From Actinomycetota bacterium (GTDB lineage Bacteria; Actinomycetota; AC-67), in assembly GCA_044866075.1 (NCBI GenBank), contig JBIOTQ010000115.1, positions 10,607-74,606 of the forward strand: 64,000 nucleotides of DNA, written 5' to 3'. The notes under the pieces are model-generated. The model searched no databases and was not told where the DNA came from. It worked only from the letters and a program-made list of their open reading frames with translations. The translations under genes and the position numbers were made by a program. This document shows positions 25,516 to 40,940 of this stretch, in pieces. Numbering within the stretch: the stretch's first letter is position 1; each line of letters starts with the position of its first letter.

Positions 25516-25543
25516 TAAAAAACCTCTCGGATCCCGAGAGGTC
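25516..25543 (-). terminator. intrinsic terminator-like hairpin + U6 in the leuA 5' leader (putative attenuator)
   Basis: Minus strand reads ACCTCTCGG-gat-CCGAGAGGT followed by TTTTTT, about 50 nt upstream of the leuA ATG. It is nearly identical to the element upstream of the ilv operon at 34947..34976. Confidence 0.5.
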
Positions 25544-25709
25544 GCGCGCACGCCAGAAAGGCGAGCGCGCCGTCAAAGCAGGAGGAGCGCCGACCGATAA
25601 GCCCTCGAAGTCGTCCTGTCGCGGGGATTCTGTCAGAGGGCGTTGGGAGTGTCAACGAGGTTCTGGGGAGTGGATGCGGGCGCCCGCCGAAGCTAGGGTC
25701 CTCAGGAGA

Positions 25710-29870: not shown

Positions 29871-30299
29871 CTAGGCGCTTTCGAGGACCCGCTTGAGGTT
29901 CGCCAGGAAGCCGTTGTTCGACTTGCCGATCGTCATCTTGATCATCGGCGTCATGATCTTCATCATGCCCGGCGGTTCGAGGTCGACCCGTCGCGTGACG
30001 CGCGAGCCCTGACCCTCCGTTTCCACGATGTTCGTCACCGTCGGGTTCATCTTGCCCATGTGCCCCTGGAACTCGACCAGCTTGCCCGGCTCGAGTTTGG
30101 AGACCGTCATGGTTCCCTCGGACACGCCCATCGCGGGCTTGACCTTCACGTTGAAGACGGTGCCCACGCCGACGTTCTCGGTGGACGAGCTGACTTCGAG
30201 CACGTCCGTGTGCCACTCAGGATCGTGCCGCAGGTCGGCGACGTAGCCGAAGACGTCGGCCGGCGGCCGTGCGATCGAGACACTGCGTTCGACCCTCAT
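29871..30299 (-). CDS. SRPBCC-family protein (polyketide cyclase/START-like)
   Basis: 142 aa, SRPBCC pattern (VSIARPPADVFGYVADLRHDPEW...). Confidence 0.7.
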   Translation of the reverse strand: MRVERSVSIARPPADVFGYVADLRHDPEWHTDVLEVSSSTENVGVGTVFNVKVKPAMGVSEGTMTVSKLEPGKLVEFQGHMGKMNPTVTNIVETEGQGSRVTRRVDLEPPGMMKIMTPMIKMTIGKSNNGFLANLKRVLESA

Positions 30300-30314
30300 C
30301 CTCCACCCCTCCGA

Positions 30315-31016
30315 TCAGCGCCCGAATATCTTCTTAGCAACGCGACGTGCCGTGCCCGACGAAGGCGGAACCGATCCGCGAAGCGCACCCTGCTCCTCGA
30401 CGAAGGACTCGAAATAGCGGTCGGCTTCTTCCGGCCCGGCGAAGACCCGCTCCGAGAATTCGAAACTCGAATCCCACCAGAGCATCTGCACCTTCTCTTC
30501 CTCGGTCAGCCGCTCGTGGAAGCCCTCGGGGAAATACGAGCCGGATCTGTTGATGATGTGATGCTTGAACGTGAAATCGATGCGCTTCCCCGGAACGATG
30601 TCGATGAGCCAGTGATGATGCCCCCATCCCACCCAGGGCCCCTGCACGCCATACGCCTGCTCCTCCAACCGTGAGGGAACCTCTATGTAGCCGGCCTTCC
30701 CGATCCGATTGATCTCCGAGCAGACCCAGATCGGATCACGGATATCCTCCAGCGTGTGCGAGCAGATAACAAAATCGAATTGCTTGTCTTCGAACGGGAA
30801 ACGTCTGCGCTCGCAGATGTCCCAGATCACCCAGGTATCTCGCGTGAAGCGTTCGGGGCCTTGCCCCGTCCGCCCGTAGAGGCCCCGGGTCTCGTACGGC
30901 ATGAGATCGAGGACCCAATCCGCGCGGGCGAATGGCTTGCCCCACGCGCCGATATCGAGGACGACTGCATCGGCCGGGAGATCCGCCTCGATACGCCGAG
31001 CGCTTTCGTCGAACAC
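30315..31016 (-). CDS. SAM-dependent methyltransferase-like protein
   Basis: VVLDIGAWGKPFARADWVLD... methyltransferase-like fold. GTG start 13 nt downstream of the ilvC stop. Confidence 0.6.
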   Translation of the reverse strand: MFDESARRIEADLPADAVVLDIGAWGKPFARADWVLDLMPYETRGLYGRTGQGPERFTRDTWVIWDICERRRFPFEDKQFDFVICSHTLEDIRDPIWVCSEINRIGKAGYIEVPSRLEEQAYGVQGPWVGWGHHHWLIDIVPGKRIDFTFKHHIINRSGSYFPEGFHERLTEEEKVQMLWWDSSFEFSERVFAGPEEADRYFESFVEEQGALRGSVPPSSGTARRVAKKIFGR

Positions 31017-31028
31017 GTGTGACGTGAC

Positions 31029-32027
<999 letters not shown>

Positions 32028-32031
32028 TCCC

Positions 32032-32556
32032 TTACGCCCCCTTCTCCGCAAGGCGGAGCGACTTCTCGGCGATGCCGCGGTCGCCGCGCGCGAGCGCGAC
32101 GAGCCCGGTGCGCACGAACTCGCGGATCCCGTACGGCCGCAACAGATTCGTCATCGCCTCGAGTTTGTCCGGCGATCCGGTCGCTTCGATCGTCAGCGCG
32201 GCCGGCGCCACGTCGACGATCTTCGACCGGAAGATGTCGGCGATCTCAACGATCTGCGCGCGTGTGTCGGCGTTCGCCTTCACCTTGATCAACAGAAGCT
32301 CGCGCTCGACCGACGCTTCCTTCTCGAGCTCGACGATCTTGAGGATCGGCACCAGCTTGTTGAGCTGCTTCACGACCTGCTCCAGCGGCTTGTCCTCGAC
32401 GTTGACCACGATCGTCATGCGCGAGACGTCGTCGATCTCGGTCGGACCGACCGCCAGTGAGTCGATGTTGAAGCCGCGTCGTGCGAACAGCCCGGCGACG
32501 CGCGCGAGGACACCCGGCTTGTTCTCGACGAGGACGGACAGCGTGTGCTTGGCCAT
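32032..32556 (-). CDS. ilvN: acetolactate synthase small (regulatory) subunit
   Basis: [40 protein letters not shown]... ACT domain. ATG overlaps the ilvB stop (TGATG). Confidence 0.9.
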
Positions 32557-34310
32557 CAGATGATCGCCTCCGGGGTGTCGACCAGGATGTCCTGGTGCGC
32601 TTTCTCGTACTCGGGCCCCAGGATGATGTCGTCGTTCGACGCGCCGGCCGGGACCATCGGGTAGCACTTCTCTTCGGGGTCGCAACGGAAGTCGATCACG
32701 ACGGTGCGGTCGTCAATCTCCGTGGCTTTGCGGATCGTCGCCTCGACCTCACCGGGGTTCTCGCAGCGCAGGCCGATCGCGCCGTAGGCCTCGGCGAGCT
32801 TCACGTAGTCGGGAACCTCGTAGCCGAACTCGACGGCCGAAAAGCGCTTCTCGTAGAAGAGCTCCTGCCACTGGCGGACCATCCCGAGGAACGCGTTGTT
32901 GATGATCGCGATCTTCACCGGGATGTTCTCGGTAGTCATCGTGGCGAGCTCCTGGCACGTCATCTGGAAACAGCCGTCGCCGTCGATCGCCCAGACGGTC
33001 TCGTCGGGCCGGCCGACCTTCGCGCCCATCGCTGCGGGAACGGCGTAGCCCATCGTGCCGAGGCCGCCCGAGTTGAGCCACGTGTTCGGCCGCTTGAAGC
33101 GGATGTACTGCGAGGCCCACATCTGGTGCTGACCCACGCCGGCCACATACACGGCGTCGCCCTTCGAGATCTTGCCGATCTGCTCGATGACGTACTCCGG
33201 CTTCAGCTTGCCGTCCGGCTCTTGCGTGTACATGTAGGGGTACTTCTTCTTCCAGGCCATGACCGTCTTTGTCCACTCGGGATACTCCGGGCGGCCGCGC
33301 TCCTCGATCATCTGCTCGAGCGTCTCGTTGAGGTCGTGGATCACGTTGCGCGCGTCGCCGACGATCGGCACGTCGACCGGGCGGTTCTTACCGATCTCTG
33401 CCGGGTCGATGTCGGCGTGGATGATCTTGGCGCTCGGCGCGAACGTGGCGAGCTTGCCCGTCACGCGGTCGTCGAAGCGCACGCCGAGGGAGACCAGCAG
33501 ATCCGCCTTCTGCATCGCCGTGACCGCCGTGTAGTTGCCGTGCATGCCCGGCATGCCGAGGCACAGCTCATGGTCGTCGGGGATGCCGCCGCGGCCCATC
33601 AGCGTCGTCACCGTCGGGATCCCCGTCAGCTCGACCAGGCGCCGGAGCTCGTCGGCCGCGCCGGCCCGGATGATGCCGCCGCCCGCGTAGATGACCGGCC
33701 GCTGCGCGGACAGGATCAGCTTTGCAGCTTCGCGGATCTGCTTCGGGTTGCCTTTGACGGTCGGACGGTAGCCGGGGAGATCGACCTCCTCCGGGTACCA
33801 CCACGCCATGTCGGTCTGCAGGACGTCCTTCGGGATGTCGACGAGGACCGGGCCCGGCCGCCCGCTGCGCGCGATGTGGAACGCTTCGGCGATCGTTTGC
33901 GGGATGTCCTGCGCGTCGAGGACCAGGAAGTTGTGCTTCGTCACCGGCATGGTGATGCCGGTCGCGTCGCATTCCTGGAACGCGTCGCCGCCGACCGCCC
34001 AGGTCGGCACCTGGCCGGTGATCGCGACGATCGGGACGGAGTCCATGTACGCGCTCGCGAGCCCGGTGACGAGGTTCGTCACGCCGGGGCCCGACGTCGC
34101 CATGCACACGCCGACCTCGCCGGTGGCTTGCGCGTAGCCGTCGGCGGCGTGCGCGGCGCCCTGCTCGTGCCGGCAGAGGATGTGGCGGATCGGCGAGTCG
34201 AGTATCGGGTCGTACGCCGGGAGGATCGCGCCGCCGGGGATCCCGAAGATGACCTCGACCCCCTCCTGTTCCAGCGAGCGGATCGTGGCTTGGGCTCCGG
34301 TGATCTTCAC
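32556..34310 (-). CDS. ilvB: acetolactate synthase large subunit
   Basis: [34 protein letters not shown]... TPP enzyme. GTG at 34310 preceded by AGGAGA; the track start at 34481 is an upstream extension. Confidence 0.9.
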
Positions 34311-34332
34311 GGCTGCATCACTCTCCTGATCT

Positions 34333-34929
34333 CTAGTTCGGCGACATTCGTTCGGACGTGCGGGCGACCTCGCGGATGACATCGTGCGCTTCGGCGACGC
34401 GCACGCCGACCGCGGCGAGATCTGCCAGGTTGACGCGGTGGGTCTCGTCGTTGCTCGCGGCCAGCGCGTCGGCCACGGCAACGATGTCGTAGTCGAGGCC
34501 GATGGCGTCGTACATCGTCATCCGGGGGCAGTTCGGCAGGTTGACACCGACGACGACGATCTTGGAGACGCCGGCCCGGCGCAGCAGCAGATCGAGCTCG
34601 GTGAACGCGAACGCGCTGAAACGCTGCTTCACGACGACCGGCTCGCCGGGCTCCGGCACCAAGCGGTCGACGATCTGCTGGCCCCAGGTGCGCTCGACCG
34701 TGAACCCGCGGTCGGCCTGGAACGCGGGCACCCGGAAGCGCTCGACGTCCCACGTGTCGGCGCGGTACGAGCGGACCACGTGGATGACCGGCTCCCGCGC
34801 CTCACGGAACGCATCCAGGATCGCGTTCATGACCGGCGCTTTGTGCGCCGCGTCCGGCATGAACGCCTTCCCGTCGGCGTGGGCGAGGTCGTTCTGCATG
34901 TCGATGATCAGAAGAGCGGTGCGGCCCAT
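34333..34929 (-). CDS. isochorismatase-family (cysteine hydrolase) protein, first gene of the ilv transcription unit
   Basis: [15 protein letters not shown]...[14 protein letters not shown] isochorismatase-like D/K/C motif. GGGAG RBS before the ATG at 34929. 22 nt upstream of ilvB. Confidence 0.75.
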
Positions 34930-34946
34930 TTCCAACTCCCTGGAAC

Positions 34947-34976
34947 GAAAAAACCTCTCGGCTTCCGAGAGGTTCA
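34947..34976 (-). terminator. attenuator terminator (hairpin + U-tract) between the ilv leader peptide and the operon
   Basis: Minus strand reads AACCTCTCGG-aag-CCGAGAGGTT followed by TTTTT, 29 nt downstream of the leader-peptide stop and about 20 nt upstream of the first gene's start. Confidence 0.6.
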
Positions 34977-35002
34977 CGCGCACGCCCGAGGCGAGCGCGT
35001 GG

Positions 35003-35053
35003 TCAGATAACGACTACGAGAACGCTCGCGCTACGCATCTCCTCGGGCTTCAT
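35003..35053 (-). CDS. ilv operon leader peptide MKPEEMRSASVLVVVI
   Basis: 16 codons ending in Val-Leu-Val-Val-Val-Ile before TGA. Preceded about 33 nt upstream by TTGACA, so the transcript is probably leaderless or has a very short 5' UTR. Confidence 0.6.
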   Translation of the reverse strand: MKPEEMRSASVLVVVI

Positions 35054-35108
35054 GGTAGGCGCTATCGTGCCAGCCCGCCCGGAAGGTGTCAACTGGCATC
35101 CGCGCAGG

Positions 35109-35504
35109 TCAGGCACTGTGACGCGCCGGAGGCAGCTCCGTGAGCGCCGCCTGCGCCGCGGCGAGCGCTTCCTTCGTATCGACGCCGAGCTGGCTCGCGC
35201 GCACCGCGAAGGAGTGCGCCGCCTGCCGGAGCTGTTCGAGCGATTCCTTCGGTCGCGGCCGGCTTCTGCCTCCCTCGATGAAGGTTCCGTGCCGGCCGCG
35301 CGTGACGATGAGGCCTTGATCCTCGAGCTCGCGGTACGCGCGCGCGACGGTTCCACCGGCCAGCGCCAGATCGTCTGCGAGCTGCCGGATCGGAGGCAGA
35401 CGCATTCCGTCGGCGAGCACGCCGCTCGCGATCATGCTGGCGACCTGCGAGCGGATCTGCTCGTAGGGCGGGACCGGTGAATCGGGGTCAATGCTGAGGA
35501 TCAC
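35109..35504 (-). CDS. GntR-family (short, YtrA-like) transcriptional regulator
   Basis: PYEQIRSQVASMIASGVLADGMRLPPIRQLADDLALAGGTVARAYRELEDQGLIVTRGRHGTFI wHTH. GTG at 35504 after AGGAGG, overlapping the stop of the upstream membrane-protein gene (GTGA). Confidence 0.7.
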   Translation of the reverse strand: MILSIDPDSPVPPYEQIRSQVASMIASGVLADGMRLPPIRQLADDLALAGGTVARAYRELEDQGLIVTRGRHGTFIEGGRSRPRPKESLEQLRQAAHSFAVRASQLGVDTKEALAAAQAALTELPPARHSA

Positions 35505-36469
35505 GCCGCGACCTCCTGCCGTCGTTGCGTACGCCGGACCACCCACTTCTGGTCGATGCCCAGGTGCAACCACGAGAACACAGCAGCTATCCCGCAGATG
35601 AGGCTCGCGAGTCCGAGCAACGAGTGGAAGGAGCCGCCGCTCGTGAATGTCGTCCACTGACCGGCCAGCCGCGAGAGGATCCCGAATTGCAGCGCGAGCC
35701 CCGCGCCGACGACAGCATGCATACCTGTCGAGCGGATGGCGTCGTCGGCTTCCACGAGTCCCTCGGAGACGGCCGGCTGCGGCCGGTGCACGATCCGACG
35801 CGTGGTGACCTCAACGATGATGACAAGAAGGATCGCGATCCCGCCCCACGCGAGAGCCTCGCCGAGATCGGGCCGCGTTCCGAGATTGTCCCCGCGAAAT
35901 GCCGGATGGCCCTTCGGTATGAGCTGCCACACGGCAACGAGAGCGACGGTTGCGAGAGACACGGAACGCATCAGGATCGTCGCGACGGGAGTGATGTAGT
36001 CGTTGATCCGCCGCGGCGCGAGGGCAGCGGCACGCGGCGCACCCGGCTGCGGACGGAACGCCCAGAGTTCGGCGATCGCCGCCCCCAGGAGATAGCCGCC
36101 GAACACCGCGCGCAACCCGCCAACGCCCGCCTTGTCCTGCCCAACGGCGACACCCACGATCACATAGGTGGCGTACCCGACCAACCCGCCGGCCGCACGG
36201 AAGCGCCTGCCGCGACGGAGGTAGCGGTGCACGACCTCCCGGTTTTCGTCCGTGATGGCGACCCCGTGCTTCTTCGTCCACCCTTTCAGGTAGTCCTCGC
36301 GAAGGAAGAACCCGTCGCGGATGATGAACGCGGCGACCGTCAGCAGCACGCCCACGGTGATGGCCTCGATCATGCCAAAACCCCACAGGTAGACGGACGA
36401 GAGCAGGAGGCCGATCACGATGATCGGCGGCGCGGCGAAGGACAGGATCTTCTTGGTCGTTGCGTTCAT
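35501..36469 (-). CDS. polytopic membrane protein (hypothetical), co-transcribed with the GntR regulator
   Basis: ATG at 36469. About 8 TM helices. I recognise no known family. Confidence 0.5.
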   Translation of the reverse strand: MNATTKKILSFAAPPIIVIGLLLSSVYLWGFGMIEAITVGVLLTVAAFIIRDGFFLREDYLKGWTKKHGVAITDENREVVHRYLRRGRRFRAAGGLVGYATYVIVGVAVGQDKAGVGGLRAVFGGYLLGAAIAELWAFRPQPGAPRAAALAPRRINDYITPVATILMRSVSLATVALVAVWQLIPKGHPAFRGDNLGTRPDLGEALAWGGIAILLVIIVEVTTRRIVHRPQPAVSEGLVEADDAIRSTGMHAVVGAGLALQFGILSRLAGQWTTFTSGGSFHSLLGLASLICGIAAVFSWLHLGIDQKWVVRRTQRRQEVAA

Positions 36470-36499
36470 CGCACCCACCCCCCCAGGCTCCCGTAGCCC

Positions 36500-36529
36500 T
36501 TTGTATCAACGCCTCAATACAATAATACA
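36500..36529. promoter_or_regulatory. AT-rich repeat element TTGTAT-N10-ATACAA-TA-ATACAA (candidate GntR operator/promoter)
   Basis: Stands out as a low-GC island in a 70% GC genome, directly upstream of the membrane-protein/GntR operon. Confidence 0.3.
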
Positions 36530-36607
36530 AAGTAGAAGGCTGTCAAGAGGAATCTTGGGGCCTAGGCGGTGCGGGCCAAGCGACGGAGACGGGACTCTTA
36601 GACCTCG

Positions 36608-38293
36608 TCAGCCGCAGACGGCTCCGCGGCTCGCGCTCGAGACAAGACGCGCGTATTTGGCCAGCGCGCCCGTCGTATAGCGCGGGGGTGGCGGCGACCA
36701 ATCCTGGAGCCGCAACGCGATCTGGTCCACCGGCACGTCCATGTCGAGGCGGCGGTTCGGGATGTCGAGGATGATCTGATCGCCTTCGCGGAGGAGGCCG
36801 ATCGGACCGCCGTCCGTCGCCTCAGGAGCGATGTGCGCAACCATGTTGCCGTGGGTCGCGCCGGAGAAGCGGCCGTCGGTGATGAGGCACACGTGGTCGC
36901 CGAGACCGGCGCCGTTCACGGCGCTCGTAACGGCCAGCATCTCGCGCATGCCGGGGCCACCGCGCGGCCCCTCGTAACGGATCACGATCACGTCGCCGCG
37001 CTTGATACGTCCCTGCACGACCGCGTCGAACGCGTCCTCTTCGCGGTCGAAAACCCGGGCCGGGCCTTTGAAGACGGTGTCGTGCAGGCCGGCCATCTTC
37101 GCGACGCACCCCTCCGGCGCGAGCGAGCCGCGCAGGATGGCGAAGCCTCCCATCGCGGAGATCGGTTCGGCGAGCGGGTGGACGACCTCGCGATTGGTCG
37201 GCGTCCCCGCGCCTTCTAGGTTCTCCGCCACCGTCTTGCCGGTGACCGTCAGTGCGTCGCCGTCGATGAGTCCGGCGTCGAGCATCTCGCGCATGATCGC
37301 CGGGATGCCGCCCGCGCGATCGATGTCGAGCATGACGAAGCGGCCCCACGGTTTCATGTCGGCGATGATCGGCGTCCGGCGGGCGATGCGGTCGAAGTCG
37401 TCGATCTCGAGCTCGGCGCCGACCTCGTTCGCGATGGCGAGGAGATGCAGGACGGCGTTCGTCGATCCTCCACAAGCGACGACGACGGCGATGGCGTTCT
37501 CGAGCGCGGTCTTCGTGATGATGTCGCGCGGCGTGATGCCCAACTCGAGGAGGTTCAGCACCGCTTCGCCGCTCGCACGCCCGAACGCGTCGCGCCGCGG
37601 ATCGACGGCGGCGGGGCTTGCGCTTCCGGGCAACGAAACGCCGAGCGCCTCGAGCGCGGTGGCCATCGTGTTGGCGGTAAACATCCCACCGCACGCGCCC
37701 GCACCGGGGCAGGCGTTCCGTTCCAGCTCCCGAAGGTCGTCGTCGCTCATCGTTCCCGCCGCGTGCGCGCCGACCGCTTCGAAGACGTCTTGGATCGTCA
37801 CGTCGTGGCCCTGGAACTGCCCGGGGAGGATCGTGCCGCCGTAGAGGAACACGCTCGGCAGGTTGAGCCGGGCGGCTCCCATCACCATGCCGGGCAGCGA
37901 CTTGTCGCACCCAGCGATGGTGACGAGGCCGTCGAAGCGTTCGGCGTGCGCGACGAGCTCGACCGAATCCGCGATGATCTCGCGACTCACGAGCGATGCG
38001 CGCATGCCTTCGTGGCCCATCGAGATGCCGTCCGACACCGCGATCGTCGTGAACTCGACCGGCACTCCCCCGGCCGCGCGCGCGCCCTCCTTCGCCGCTT
38101 TCGCGACGCGGTCGAGGTTGAAGTTGCAAGGGGTCACCTCGTTCCAGGAGGAGGCGACGCCGATCTGCGGTTTGTTGAAGTCCTCTTCCGAGAAACCGAC
38201 GGCCCGGAGCATCGCGCGGGCCGGCGCGCGCGCCGGGCCCTCGGTCACCTCGCGGCTGCGGTGGCGCGGGTCGGCTTTCGTTCTCTGGGGCAT
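36608..38293 (-). CDS. ilvD: dihydroxy-acid dehydratase
   Basis: 561 aa, IlvD/EDD family throughout ([18 protein letters not shown]...). Confidence 0.95.
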
Positions 38294-38371
38294 CGCGCGA
38301 AAGGATACCGGCTCCGCCCACCGTTCGGTCCCGAAGGGCCGCGGGCGACGAGGCTCGAATATCCTCGGGCT

Positions 38372-39373
38372 ATGAGACGGCGCTCGGGGGCGCGGATCCT
38401 CCTAGGGTGTGTTGCGCTGGGCGTCCTCGTTCCGTCCTGCCTCTTCGTGCCGGGCAACAACCCCGTCGACGCCTATCGGTCGGCGCGGAGGCTGGCGGAG
38501 TTCGATGAGGTGGACCCAAGGATTCCGCACATCACGATCGTGCTCCACGCGTTCCGCGAGGACGCGATCGACGTCTATTCGCCCGGCTCTGAGGAAGAAC
38601 AGATCTTTATCGCCGAGGCTGCCGCGGCATCCTTCGGTGAATCGTTCCCCGTCGCGGAGCCGAACTTCTTCGAGGACAACCGCGCGGATGTGCAGCTCGG
38701 GCACAGGCTGCTCAAACGTGAGGGAGACCTCTACACCCTGACCGTGCCGACTCAGGGACTGCAGGCCGCGGTCGAGAGCCGTGAATACTCGGGTTTCGAT
38801 CTCCTCATCTGTCCGCCGAATGCAGAAGCCGTCTTCCTCGCTTCCCGACCTCCGGATTTCGAGGCGTGTATCAACGGCCGGGCATGGGAGGTCGGCGACG
38901 AGCGCCTGACCGTCACGGTGACCGTCCGTCCACGAACCGCCCACTACCTCATCTTCGTGGCCTCGGTCATCCTCGGCCTCGTGCTGCTGGGCGCGCTCGC
39001 ATGGTTCGTCGGGAGCCGCTTGCGCGAGGGGCCGTTCCGGAACCGAACCTCGTCGGCGGTCGCGCTCGGCCTGATCGTCGGGGTGCTCGCGGGAGGCGGC
39101 GTCGCGTGGTCGATCGCCAGCGCGGCGATGCAGCTGGGCCCCTCCGACAACATCGCCCTTTCGAAGGACCTCGGGGTCGGTCTTTATGCCTTGTCGGCCG
39201 CCCTCCCCGCTCTGGCGGGGGCGATCCCCGGCCTCATCTTCCTGATCCTTCTGGTGAAACGGCGGCCGTGGCCGGATCAGCTCAGACCGGAACTGCCGGC
39301 GTTCCCGCCACCCCCGCCGCCCGGCGGCCCCGGATCATCTCCACCGCCGCCGCTTCCGTTCGGCGGTCGCTAG
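38372..39373 (+). CDS. lipoprotein/membrane protein with C-terminal TM helices and proline-rich tail (hypothetical)
   Basis: ATG at 38372. [17 protein letters not shown] signal and possible lipobox, a ~200-aa extracytoplasmic domain, 3 TM helices, and a C-terminal [19 protein letters not shown] tail. Confidence 0.5.
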
Positions 39374-40113
39374 GAGGGTCCGGCCACGCCGGGTGTTCCG
39401 GGCGGGGTCGGCGCCGGGCCTTCCCACACGGGAGCACCTCCGGCGTCGATGCCGAGCCCTCGCAGGAGCGCATCCTCCATCGCTTCGTCGTCGTCGAAAT
39501 GTCCGTTGCCGTCCCCCATCGTCTTGTACCGCCACACCATCCCCCAGATTCCCGCGGTGATGATGGTCAGGAAGATGTACAGTCCGGTGCTCCGTCTCTG
39601 CACGGGTTTCCGTCGCGGCGGGATCGCAGAGGACATCCCGAGCTTCTGCATGATCCACTCGGCGTTCGCTGCGTAACTCGACTCCCATTCGTCGAAGAAG
39701 ATCAGATCCCTGTTGAGGAAGTGGTTGATGTAGGCGCCGACCAAGATCCCCACGTAGGGGATGAAGCGGAGGATCATCCAGAGCACAGGCTCGCGCTTGT
39801 TGCGAAGCTCGAAGGCGTCGATCTGCTGGTAGATACGCGACAGATTGTCGAGTCCTTCGGCGACCTCTTCCCGACGGCCGGCCGACTCGGCACGCGTGTT
39901 GAGCGTGTGCCAGAAGTACGACATGAACGCGAGCCGGCGTCGCGCGTGCTCGCTGCGTCGCTGGACGAGGCGGTAGGTCCCGTAATGCACGTAGAAACCG
40001 AACGTGATGATCGTCCAGCCGAGATAGCTCCAGTAGTTGAAGCGATAGTCGGTCTCGCCTCGTCTGCGAACCTCGGCGACGAGGAATTGTTCGTAGCTAA
40101 GTTGCGTAGCCAT
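39370..40113 (-). CDS. DUF4234-like membrane protein, paralog 2 (internal duplication)
   Basis: Two internal segments with the GxY...WxY-type DUF4234 signature (YWSYLGWTIITFGFYVHYGTY and LYIFLTIITAGIWGMVWRYKT), plus a Pro/Gly-rich tail. About 80% identical to the upstream paralog. Confidence 0.6.
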   Translation of the reverse strand: MATQLSYEQFLVAEVRRRGETDYRFNYWSYLGWTIITFGFYVHYGTYRLVQRRSEHARRRLAFMSYFWHTLNTRAESAGRREEVAEGLDNLSRIYQQIDAFELRNKREPVLWMILRFIPYVGILVGAYINHFLNRDLIFFDEWESSYAANAEWIMQKLGMSSAIPPRRKPVQRRSTGLYIFLTIITAGIWGMVWRYKTMGDGNGHFDDDEAMEDALLRGLGIDAGGAPVWEGPAPTPPGTPGVAGPS

Positions 40114-40940
40114 CAGGGCCGGTCCCGCGGCGCTTGGGGAGGCGGCAGGTGGCCGCTAGGCCCGAACTGGTGGCTCTCGTGCAGTGGCAGGGGCCCCGGG
40201 AGATCGGCCGGCGGTTCTCCAACGCCGGGTGTGCCCGGGGGGTTCACGAAGCCTGATCCCCACGCGGGAACGGCGCCCGGATCGACGCCAATCCCCCGCA
40301 GCAGCGCGTCCTCCATCGCGGCGTCGTCGTCGAAGTGGCCGTTCCCGTCGATCATGGTCTGGTACCGCCAAACGAGCGAGAAGATGCCGAACGTGATGAC
40401 GGTCAAGAATACGTACAGCCCGGTGCTCCGATTGTGCACCGGTCTCGCTCTCTTCGGCACCGACACGGACATGCCGAGTCGCTGCATCACCCATTCGGCG
40501 TTGGCCGCGTAGCTCGACTCCCACTCGTCGAGGAAAACGAAGTCCTTGTTCAAGAAATGGTTGATGTAGGCGCCGACGGGCCCGAAGACAAGGCGCAGGA
40601 TCATCCAGAGGATCGACTCGCGTTTGTTGCGCAAGTCGTACGCGTCGACCTGCTGGTAGATCCGGGAGAGGTTGTCGAGACCCTCCGCGACCTCGTCGCG
40701 GCGGCCCGAGGATTCGGCGCGCTGGTTGAGCGTGTGCCAGAAGTAGGACATGAACGCCAGGCGCCGGCGAACGTGCTGCGCCCGGCGCTCGACGAGCTTG
40801 TAGGTCCCGTAGTGGCCGTAATAGGTGAACGTCAGGATGGTCCAGCCGAGGTAGCTCCAGTAGTTGAAGCGGTAGTCGGTTGCGTCGCGGCGACGCACCT
40901 CCGCCACCAGGAATTGTTCGTAGGTGAGCTGCTGACTCAC
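40113..40940 (-). CDS. DUF4234-like membrane protein, paralog 1
   Basis: MSQQLTYEQFLVAEVRRRDATDYRFNYWSYLGWTILTF.... The start of paralog 2 overlaps its stop (TGATG). Confidence 0.6.
   Translation of the reverse strand: MSQQLTYEQFLVAEVRRRDATDYRFNYWSYLGWTILTFTYYGHYGTYKLVERRAQHVRRRLAFMSYFWHTLNQRAESSGRRDEVAEGLDNLSRIYQQVDAYDLRNKRESILWMILRLVFGPVGAYINHFLNKDFVFLDEWESSYAANAEWVMQRLGMSVSVPKRARPVHNRSTGLYVFLTVITFGIFSLVWRYQTMIDGNGHFDDDAAMEDALLRGIGVDPGAVPAWGSGFVNPPGTPGVGEPPADLPGPLPLHESHQFGPSGHLPPPQAPRDRP

Follow-up and report, generated by a model that had tools for sequence, protein, structure and literature searches.

Operons of the ilvBNC type and their control by leader peptides are textbook material, and the present locus raises the question of why a gene for an isochorismatase-family hydrolase should stand at the head of such an operon and whether its expression follows that of the pathway. 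The first-pass annotation of the window (the whole 64,000-nt stretch of DNA analysed here) had placed this gene between a Val/Leu/Ile leader with its terminator and ilvB, at a distance of 22 nt from the latter, and had predicted that it is controlled by branched-chain amino acids (BCAAs). Coordinates, gap and leader-terminator all proved correct. From the promoter to ilvC, in the direction of transcription, the features are:

35064..35092, minus strand: promoter, with the −35 element TTGACA at 35092..35087, a 17-nt spacer and the −10 element CACGAT at 35069..35064
35003..35053, minus strand: leader ORF MKPEEMRSASVLVVVI*, 16 codons plus TGA, the peptide ending in VLVVVI
34975..35001, minus strand: GC-rich hairpin H1, CACGCGCTCGCC-TCG-GGCGTGCGCGTG, which begins 1 nt past the leader stop and abuts the terminator
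34948..34975, minus strand: intrinsic terminator GAACCTCTCGG-AAG-CCGAGAGGTT followed by T6, with an 11-bp stem (6 pairs G-C) and a 3-nt loop
34333..34929, minus strand: isochorismatase-family hydrolase gene, ATG at 34929 and TAG at 34335..34333, 198 aa
34311..34332, minus strand: hydrolase-ilvB spacer of exactly 22 nt, with the ilvB Shine-Dalgarno (SD) sequence AGGAGAG at 34326..34320
32556..34310, minus strand: ilvB, acetolactate synthase large subunit, GTG start, three TPP-enzyme Pfam domains
32032..32553, minus strand: ilvN, acetolactate synthase small subunit, Pfam ALS_ss_C and ACT_AHAS_ss
31029..32027, minus strand: ilvC, ketol-acid reductoisomerase, Pfam KARI_N and KARI_C

The leader ATG lies only 10 nt 3′ of the −10 element, and the transcript should therefore be leaderless or nearly so; the final six sense codons of the leader ORF are GTT CTC GTA GTC GTT ATC. 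On the minus strand, the terminator at 34975..34948 is the sole strong terminator-like site within 31000..36000, and past it the hydrolase start codon is preceded by its own SD sequence (GGGAG, 34940..34936). The product of ilvB scored 950 bits against NCBIfam NF005860 (cut-off 881). Neither a hairpin nor a T-run is present in the 22-nt hydrolase-ilvB spacer, whether the sequence itself or a terminator scan is consulted. All four genes thus show the marks by which operons are recognised (one strand, short or overlapping junctions, no intervening terminator and an order conserved in relatives), and hydrolase-ilvBNC is predicted to be co-transcribed as one unit. A generic sigma-70 scan detected no promoter and missed even that of the leader, which makes it insensitive for this organism and therefore no basis for excluding an internal ilvB promoter within the hydrolase gene. 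The genes upstream of the leader are GntR and membrane-protein genes.

The order of these genes is widely kept. Briefly, when one genome per GTDB species was searched by a pattern-seeded scan, 10 MAG loci from Actinomycetota were recovered (L001-L010), with hydrolases ranging from 90% down to 50% identity to the window protein, and ilvB-ilvN-ilvC followed directly 3′ of the hydrolase in every one of these that reaches far enough downstream. The same order was found in two further contexts (L014-L017) by exact-protein look-up of two variant orthologs and in seven more loci from a metagenome scan (L046, L058, L059, L071, L087, L088 and L096). Altogether, over 15 independent loci from MAGs and metagenomes show the leader-hydrolase-ilvBNC order, all of the relatives compared being MAGs or metagenome contigs, and the hydrolase-ilvBNC arrangement is no chance juxtaposition. 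Junctions between hydrolase and ilvB in these relatives measure 14–22 nt or consist of a 4-nt ATGA stop/start overlap (five loci: L004, L005, L007, L014 and L015). Gaps of −4 to 22 nt therefore leave no space for a terminator, and in the ATGA-overlap lineages the junction sequence indicates probable translational coupling of the hydrolase to ilvB. The first-pass annotation had named an independent ilvB promoter together with a terminator after the hydrolase, or a lack of co-regulation, as outcomes that would contradict its prediction; neither was found. Junctions this short hold no terminator, and although the promoter scan is too insensitive to speak against an internal ilvB promoter, stop and start codons overlap in five lineages.

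Furthermore, dN/dS of the hydrolase in close, unsaturated pairs was 0.11–0.15 (compared with 0.075–0.15 for ilvB), a low value that therefore marks it as a functional gene under purifying selection. The most divergent ortholog (L010, 50% identity) is without a leader and has a divergent gene 50 nt upstream; its retention of hydrolase-ilvBNC argues for a linkage to ilvBNC itself and not merely to the attenuator.

Conservation extends to the region ahead of the hydrolase. The aligned relatives keep the promoter pattern TTGACA-17 nt-CAnAnT, the start codon lying 6–10 nt past the −10 element, and ten distinct lineages share the same design before the hydrolase, namely promoter, ORF of 14–18 codons, stop, GC hairpin and terminator. 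Leader peptides vary between lineages, and the Val/Leu/Ile run always falls just before the stop (VLVVVI, VLVVI, FVVVVLS, LLVVVT, GVVVLR, VVVVLR, SVVVA, LVVVVLS, LVVLV and LVVVV). H1 folds in every relative despite a differing inner sequence, and the terminator sequence is nearly invariant among them. The Val codons of the window leader (GTT, GTA, GTC and GTT) are rare ones: of the 195 Val codons in six housekeeping genes of the window, none is GTA and 5% are GTT. Features of an attenuator are present, in the form of a leader codon run for the regulated amino acids and an intrinsic terminator before the first structural gene.

Two copies of the terminator core are present in the window, where chance would give 0.04, and the second lies upstream of leuA, behind CTC CTC CTG CTT TGA. 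A metagenome scan with the terminator as its pattern was used to compare distinct loci (about 35 distinct leaders) for a match between leader codons and downstream pathway. Twenty leaders with at least three Ile among their last six residues, as well as four Ile-rich mixes, precede a citramalate-synthase-type gene. These genes were recognised by the motif DTTLRDGAQ, and the product of the one representative verified (L029) scored 632 bits for TIGR00977 citramalate synthase (cut-off 450). Leaders with Leu alone stand before leuA, and Val-rich mixed leaders precede either the hydrolase (7) or ilvB directly (3). No cross-assignment of regulatory codons to the wrong pathway was seen among the roughly 35 leaders. 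The pairing of Ile leaders with citramalate synthase and of Leu leaders with leuA on one terminator supports amino-acid-specific attenuation, and nothing else at hand argues as strongly for a regulatory role of the leader ORF as this codon-pathway match. A literature search found no paper describing a citramalate-synthase leader peptide. Since the hydrolase gene lies between the BCAA leader/terminator and ilvB, it is predicted to be very probably co-induced with valine, leucine and isoleucine synthesis; the forecast of BCAA control made from the window sequence is thereby strengthened by a leader kept in at least ten lineages, by its rare Val codons and by the tracking of codon and pathway. 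The shared-terminator attenuators also form a compact comparative data set for how actinobacterial attenuators switch.

Searches for the antiterminator on which such a switch might depend returned only the structures already described. When the ribosome footprint was masked over either the Val/Leu/Ile run or the stop codon, minimum-free-energy folds kept the terminator intact in all nine leaders, and RNAalifold, run on full and truncated alignments, found H1 and the terminator and no antiterminator. We considered an antiterminator in which a purine patch resembling an SD sequence, near the start of the ORF, pairs either with the CCUCUC arm of the terminator or with the regulatory codons; purine-patch pairing was rejected, as its mean energy across 54 leaders (−7.3 kcal/mol, shuffled −7.7 kcal/mol) was no better than that of shuffled sequence. 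In the classical enterobacterial ilvBN and ilvGMEDA attenuators, the speed of the ribosome over Val/Leu/Ile leader codons sets terminator read-through, and the same logic is proposed for the window leader. In the enterobacterial systems, hairpins 1:2, 2:3 and 3:4 are clearly defined and exclude one another, and the leader is not separated from the ilv genes by a foreign gene, whereas no antiterminator was definable in the window leader.

Closer counterparts are the actinobacterial ilvB leaders of Corynebacterium, Mycobacterium and Streptomyces (PMC1262725) and the Corynebacterium ilvB-II uORF (PMC10272879), in which a short Val/Leu/Ile-rich ORF and an intrinsic terminator likewise precede ilvBNC in high-GC Gram-positive bacteria. 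The regulatory element described here is a variant of this known leader-plus-terminator type. It differs in having a complete extra gene between terminator and ilvB, in the position of its regulatory codons, which close a nearly leaderless ORF, in a separate GC hairpin between stop codon and terminator, and in a terminator sequence that is reused before leuA and citramalate synthase. It also has no match among Rfam models: a search against Rfam 15 gave no hit at E≤1 within 30000..40000, nor any hit at the gathering score over the full window, and neither leader was matched. For the published actinobacterial ilvB leaders the exact switching mechanism is also unclear (PMC1262725). Mutation of the putative regulatory codons in the Streptomyces coelicolor ilvB leader left regulation unchanged (PMC1262725), and regulation of expression by the Corynebacterium ilvB uORF was shown by reporter assays (PMC10272879).

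The protein encoded behind this attenuator is a new member of the known isochorismatase-like superfamily. Its match to Pfam PF00857 (Isochorismatase; E=2.6e-37, 129 bits against a cut-off of 27) covers profile positions 1–173 of 175, and its catalytic triad Asp10-Lys101-Cys134 is intact and set in canonical motifs, in agreement with its first description as an isochorismatase-family cysteine hydrolase. An AF2 model of the hydrolase reached a pTM of 0.78, with pLDDT below 50 at residues 56–86, which are the most conserved clade-specific segment of the protein. The top Foldseek matches of this model all belong to the isochorismatase-like family (probability 1.00; TM 0.77–0.80 for 3HU5), and the modelled fold is the Rossmann-like alpha/beta fold of solved isochorismatase-like members.

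Among NCBIfam equivalogs, the hydrolase reached the cut-off of no characterised subfamily. We rejected its assignment as an equivalog of RutB (60.9 bits, cut-off 378), BiuH (58.7 bits, cut-off 370), PncA (37 bits with residues 110–183 alone matched, cut-off 174) or YcaC (17.8 bits, cut-off 310), as all four scores fall far below the cut-offs. A true isochorismatase (EntB, PhzD or VibB) was likewise discarded, given that the context is ilvBNC with no siderophore or phenazine cluster and that the matches to EntB (2fq1, E=1e-9) and PhzD (1nf9, E=4e-6) are weaker than those to amidases; to our knowledge, true isochorismatases have no Cys nucleophile. By both sequence and fold the nearest characterised relatives are amidohydrolases (CSHase-related, RutB, TrtA and BiuH). 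RutB, BiuH, the triuret hydrolase TrtA and N-carbamoylsarcosine amidase, the nearest characterised proteins by HMM and Foldseek, share the fold and the Asp-Lys-Cys triad with the hydrolase, but at 22–28% identity and in other contexts, and nothing here points to their substrates.

Among solved structures, the best match to the hydrolase in both sequence (E=4.9e-35) and fold (41% identity in the Foldseek alignment) is PDB 3HU5, an isochorismatase-family protein from Desulfovibrio vulgaris Hildenborough solved by structural genomics. An alignment with 50%-cluster representatives yielded a subfamily signature around the triad (Arg53, [Tyr/His]55, Arg56, Asp58, Glu63, Arg66, Arg103 and Arg136), and 3HU5 shares all of these residues with the hydrolase together with Asp10, Lys101 and Cys134. 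In contrast, 3HU5 is without Trp60 and Trp82, both typical of the ilvB-linked clade, and its gene follows azlC-azlD and not an ilv operon. The Arg-rich signature would fit a small anionic substrate, and the hydrolase most likely cleaves a small amide, perhaps of the ureido type, via an acyl-enzyme intermediate. Our literature search found no relevant oxamate link, no mention of 3HU5 and no substrate for the 3HU5-like subfamily. This subfamily is present in Desulfovibrionaceae, Methanoregula and other groups, and for so large and uncharacterised a branch the linkage to ilvB is a first physiological handle.

The triad itself varies among homologs. Across 121 aligned sequences (the window protein and 120 listed homologs), it reads Asp-Lys-Cys in 107, Asp-Lys-Ser in 10, which form a subclade, and Gly-Lys-Gly in one, the remaining three being N-terminally truncated; the nucleophile of the L010 hydrolase is also Ser, and Lys101 is invariant across the aligned orthologs. 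Such a natural Cys/Ser swap within one orthologous group amounts to a ready-made experiment on nucleophile choice in the isochorismatase-like fold. One lineage (P0053/L016, identical in two samples) carries Gly at both Asp10 and Cys134, with leader and ilvBNC in place and the ORF intact. Relaxed selection in this triad-dead lineage was considered and set aside: in pairwise comparison its dN/dS came to 0.27, the same value as in a second lineage about equally distant, and so shows no clear increase, although with dS near saturation the test is weak.

That the hydrolase is not a canonical member of the ilv operon, as the first-pass annotation maintained, is borne out by relatives that do without it. 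Three loci (L043, L086/L117 and L097) show the same architecture 50–90 nt upstream of ilvB with no hydrolase; their leaders end in LILVLT* or ILVLM*, the stop being followed by a GC hairpin and ACCTCTCGG..CCGAGAGGTTTTTT, and the adjoining ilvB genes encode products 65–75% identical to that of the window. Because the same attenuator stands directly before ilvB in these relatives, the attenuator was there before the hydrolase, whose position between it and ilvB is specific to one clade. This ilvB-linked family of hydrolases is a narrow one: among 1.84 billion representatives clustered at 50% identity, only 24 reach E≤1e-30, and outside the clade the score drops from 269 bits (at 60% identity) to roughly 150 bits (at 43%). 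On the simplest reading of these distributions, the gene would have been gained a single time in the ancestor of the ilvB-linked clade. Our literature search turned up no paper in which a gene of the isochorismatase family is connected to an ilvB operon or to an attenuator. What is new here is the combination of a conserved accessory hydrolase between attenuator and ilvB, its confinement to one uncultured soil clade and its natural Cys/Ser swap.

We propose, with a probability of roughly 0.6 for the account as a whole, that a single clade of uncultured soil Actinomycetota acquired the hydrolase as a genuine gene kept by selection, and that it is expressed and acts in the following way. Transcription would begin at the TTGACA/CACGAT promoter, and the nearly leaderless 16-codon ORF, with its Val/Leu/Ile codons at the end (three of them rare Val codons), would be translated from this transcript. 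The speed of the ribosome over these codons would decide between stop and read-through at the ACCTCTCGG..CCGAGAGG-U6 terminator. Read-through would give a single hydrolase-ilvB-ilvN-ilvC mRNA with the hydrolase as its first product, and the protein would for that reason be produced under a shortage of charged Val/Leu/Ile-tRNA. Its translation would be coupled to that of ilvB in several lineages, and as an amidohydrolase working through an acyl-enzyme the protein may be useful during BCAA limitation, for instance in salvage or in the removal of an inhibitory or damaging compound. A conserved, selected and coupled extra enzyme of this kind suggests an accessory activity in BCAA synthesis that has gone unrecognised, be it salvage, repair or the protection of acetolactate synthase.

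The same locus could also have arisen if a gene with a useful function unrelated to BCAAs had landed behind a strong, growth-linked promoter and been kept there by operon inertia, its BCAA control being incidental. The first-pass annotation had suggested either hydrolysis of a reactive or off-pathway intermediate or a hitch-hiking amidase, and either may hold. Such a history would suit a narrow, lineage-restricted family, relatives that dispense with the hydrolase behind the same attenuator and out-group members of the wider subfamily that occur in many unrelated contexts, and we know of no step in the BCAA pathway that requires an amidase. However, the hydrolase stays next to ilvB even where synonymous sites are saturated and the proteins are as little as 50% identical, and also in the leaderless L010; ATGA-overlap coupling has evolved or been kept in five loci; and purifying selection on the hydrolase is nearly as strong as that on ilvB. 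We consider this history possible, if unlikely. The regulatory half of our proposal would fail if leader and terminator did not sense BCAAs, the two elements serving instead for constitutive partial termination or to end transcripts of the upstream GntR and membrane-protein genes, and hydrolase-ilvBNC expression being BCAA-independent. The searches that returned no alternative antiterminator structure, the lack of an Rfam family match and the S. coelicolor precedent of regulatory-codon mutations without effect (PMC1262725) are all consistent with such an insensitive leader. It is nonetheless improbable, given that in about 35 distinct leaders the regulatory codons agree with the pathway encoded downstream, that rare codons fall within the runs, that a promoter lies immediately 5′ of the leader ORF in all lineages and that the related Corynebacterium ilvB uORF is regulatory in reporter assays (PMC10272879).

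The catalytic half of the proposal is touched by the variation of the triad. Were the protein mainly a binding partner, for example of AHAS or of a metabolite, hydrolase chemistry would be dispensable, and one would expect a nucleophile that is free to vary (Cys, Ser or Gly) and a lineage that could persist without two of the three triad residues, its ORF intact, in place and with dN/dS not obviously raised; stop/start overlap with ilvB would in addition favour balanced synthesis of the two proteins. Against this, Asp-Lys-Cys is kept in 107 of the 121 aligned sequences and Lys101 throughout the aligned orthologs, the Ser variants retain a possible nucleophile, and the triad-dead form is confined to one lineage, so that a role mainly in binding appears very improbable.

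The genes beside out-group members of the subfamily are heterogeneous, and the eight contexts gave no consistent functional clue. They comprise azlC-azlD (BCAA exporter family), which the 3HU5 gene of D. vulgaris follows; dapA-x-hydrolase-prmC; Dabb; dapB-hydrolase-asd-dapA; an archaeal-type PEP carboxylase; TauE with an AMP-binding protein (in Methanoregula); MarR with a methyltransferase; and DUF8052 with CstA. A function read from the azlC-azlD neighbours was considered and dropped: other Desulfovibrionaceae orthologs have different neighbours, and this context was therefore not counted as evidence. Four of the eight contexts adjoin pyruvate- or PEP-handling proteins (dapA twice, PEP carboxylase and the CstA-family transporter), as does the present clade with AHAS, a possible neighbourhood theme that, in a sample far too small, serves as a lead only. 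From this weak hint comes a reading that we rate as quite improbable, in which the hydrolase would be a protection device for pyruvate-using biosynthetic enzymes and destroy an amide-type inhibitor or pyruvate analogue, such as an oxamate-like compound or a natural amide that inhibits AHAS or KARI. As the gene lies behind the attenuator, a blocked pathway would lead to BCAA starvation and from there to more AHAS together with more of the detoxifying enzyme, which, if true, would constitute a self-correcting loop.

Among the ilvB-linked isochorismatase-family hydrolases, one subclade (the listed homologs P0101, P0105-P0107, P0111-P0113, P0117, P0119 and P0120, together with the ortholog at L010:6001-6588) carries Ser in place of the catalytic Cys, such that the motif NLPNCPR reads SLPNSPR, and this exchange is accompanied by Tyr55→His and Gln71→Glu. 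Judged from sequence, the Cys/Ser difference is a predicted natural nucleophile swap inside one orthologous group. A further lineage, that of homolog P0053 (L016:6001-6597 and L017:2170-2766), carries Gly in place of Asp10 and of Cys134, with Asn133 changed to Ile, and because of these substitutions its hydrolase is probably catalytically dead. The P0053 ORF is intact, the same sequence occurs in two independent samples (metagenomic loci L016 and L017), and the gene keeps its position, with the leader (MRPLEALPASRLVVVV*) on one side and ilvBNC on the other. The hydrolase-ilvBNC order is also retained at L010:5950-6604, whose hydrolase, a Ser variant, diverges furthest among the orthologs (50% identity); both leader and terminator are absent here, and 50 nt upstream of the hydrolase lies the end of a divergently transcribed polysaccharide-deacetylase-like gene.

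Residues 56-86 of the hydrolase (window about 34764..34672) form its most conserved clade-specific segment, which includes ..E.TWG, and are the sole long region modelled by AlphaFold2 with pLDDT <50. The segment may be a lid or interface that is ordered only in an oligomer or with bound ligand.

Beyond this clade, out-group members of the wider subfamily named for the closest solved structure, 3HU5, neighbour azlC-azlD, dapA, dapB-asd-dapA, an archaeal-type PEP carboxylase and a CstA-family transporter (L018, a D. vulgaris-like contig; L019/L020; L143; L144; L149). From this handful of loci, the 3HU5-like subfamily may be recurrently associated with pyruvate- or PEP-using functions. At two Dehalococcoidia loci (L011:6001-10262 and L012:6001-10276), five to six isochorismatase-family paralogs stand in tandem arrays, on both strands; they are ~30% identical to the query hydrolase.

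The window contains a second regulatory module, organized as in the ilv leader:

25655..25523, minus strand: regulatory module upstream of leuA (ATG 25469)

It comprises, in order, TTGACA, 17 nt, CAGAAT and a Leu run (CTC CTC CTG CTT TGA; LLLL*), which is followed by a GC hairpin and then by the terminator ACCTCTCGGGATCCGAGAGGTTTTTT. From the -10 to the Leu run, none of ATG, GTG and TTG occurs in frame, and the related contig L105 has ATG (MTATRTYRSALLLL*) at the position where the window reads AGG; in this genome, therefore, translation of the leuA leader may be absent or may begin at a non-canonical codon.

Leaders with very short ORFs, found in metagenome loci L023-L142 (for example L029, L045, L057, L072, L078, L080 and L102), form a family that shares the terminator of the ilv module. 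Many of these ORFs seem to be leaderless: they have 8-10 codons and an ATG/GTG start 6-8 nt past a CAnnAT -10 (by eye, few examples). These ORFs end in ..IIIR*, ..IIIS* or ..IIIT*, the last Ile codon being the rare ATT, and the genes downstream of such Ile-ending leaders are of the citramalate-synthase type (confirmed as TIGR00977 at the representative locus L029). The searchable literature yielded no account of a cimA leader with regulatory Ile codons, and Rfam gave no match.

Near the ilv locus, the window also carries the following genes:

35109..36478, minus strand: 325-aa predicted membrane protein and overlapping small GntR-family regulator
39370..40113 and 40113..40940, minus strand: DUF4234-domain genes, a tandem pair of paralogs

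The membrane protein has no Pfam match, and the top NCBIfam match of the regulator, the Rv1152 family, scores under that family's cut-off. The pair is flanked by ilvD (38293..36608) and the ilv leader, with no terminator between the GntR gene and the ilv leader promoter, and its synteny is kept in five relative loci (L001, L002, L046, L058 and L096). The DUF4234 paralogs, located downstream of gatB and upstream of ilvD, have near-identical N-terminal halves (MxxQLxYEQFLVAEVRRR...).
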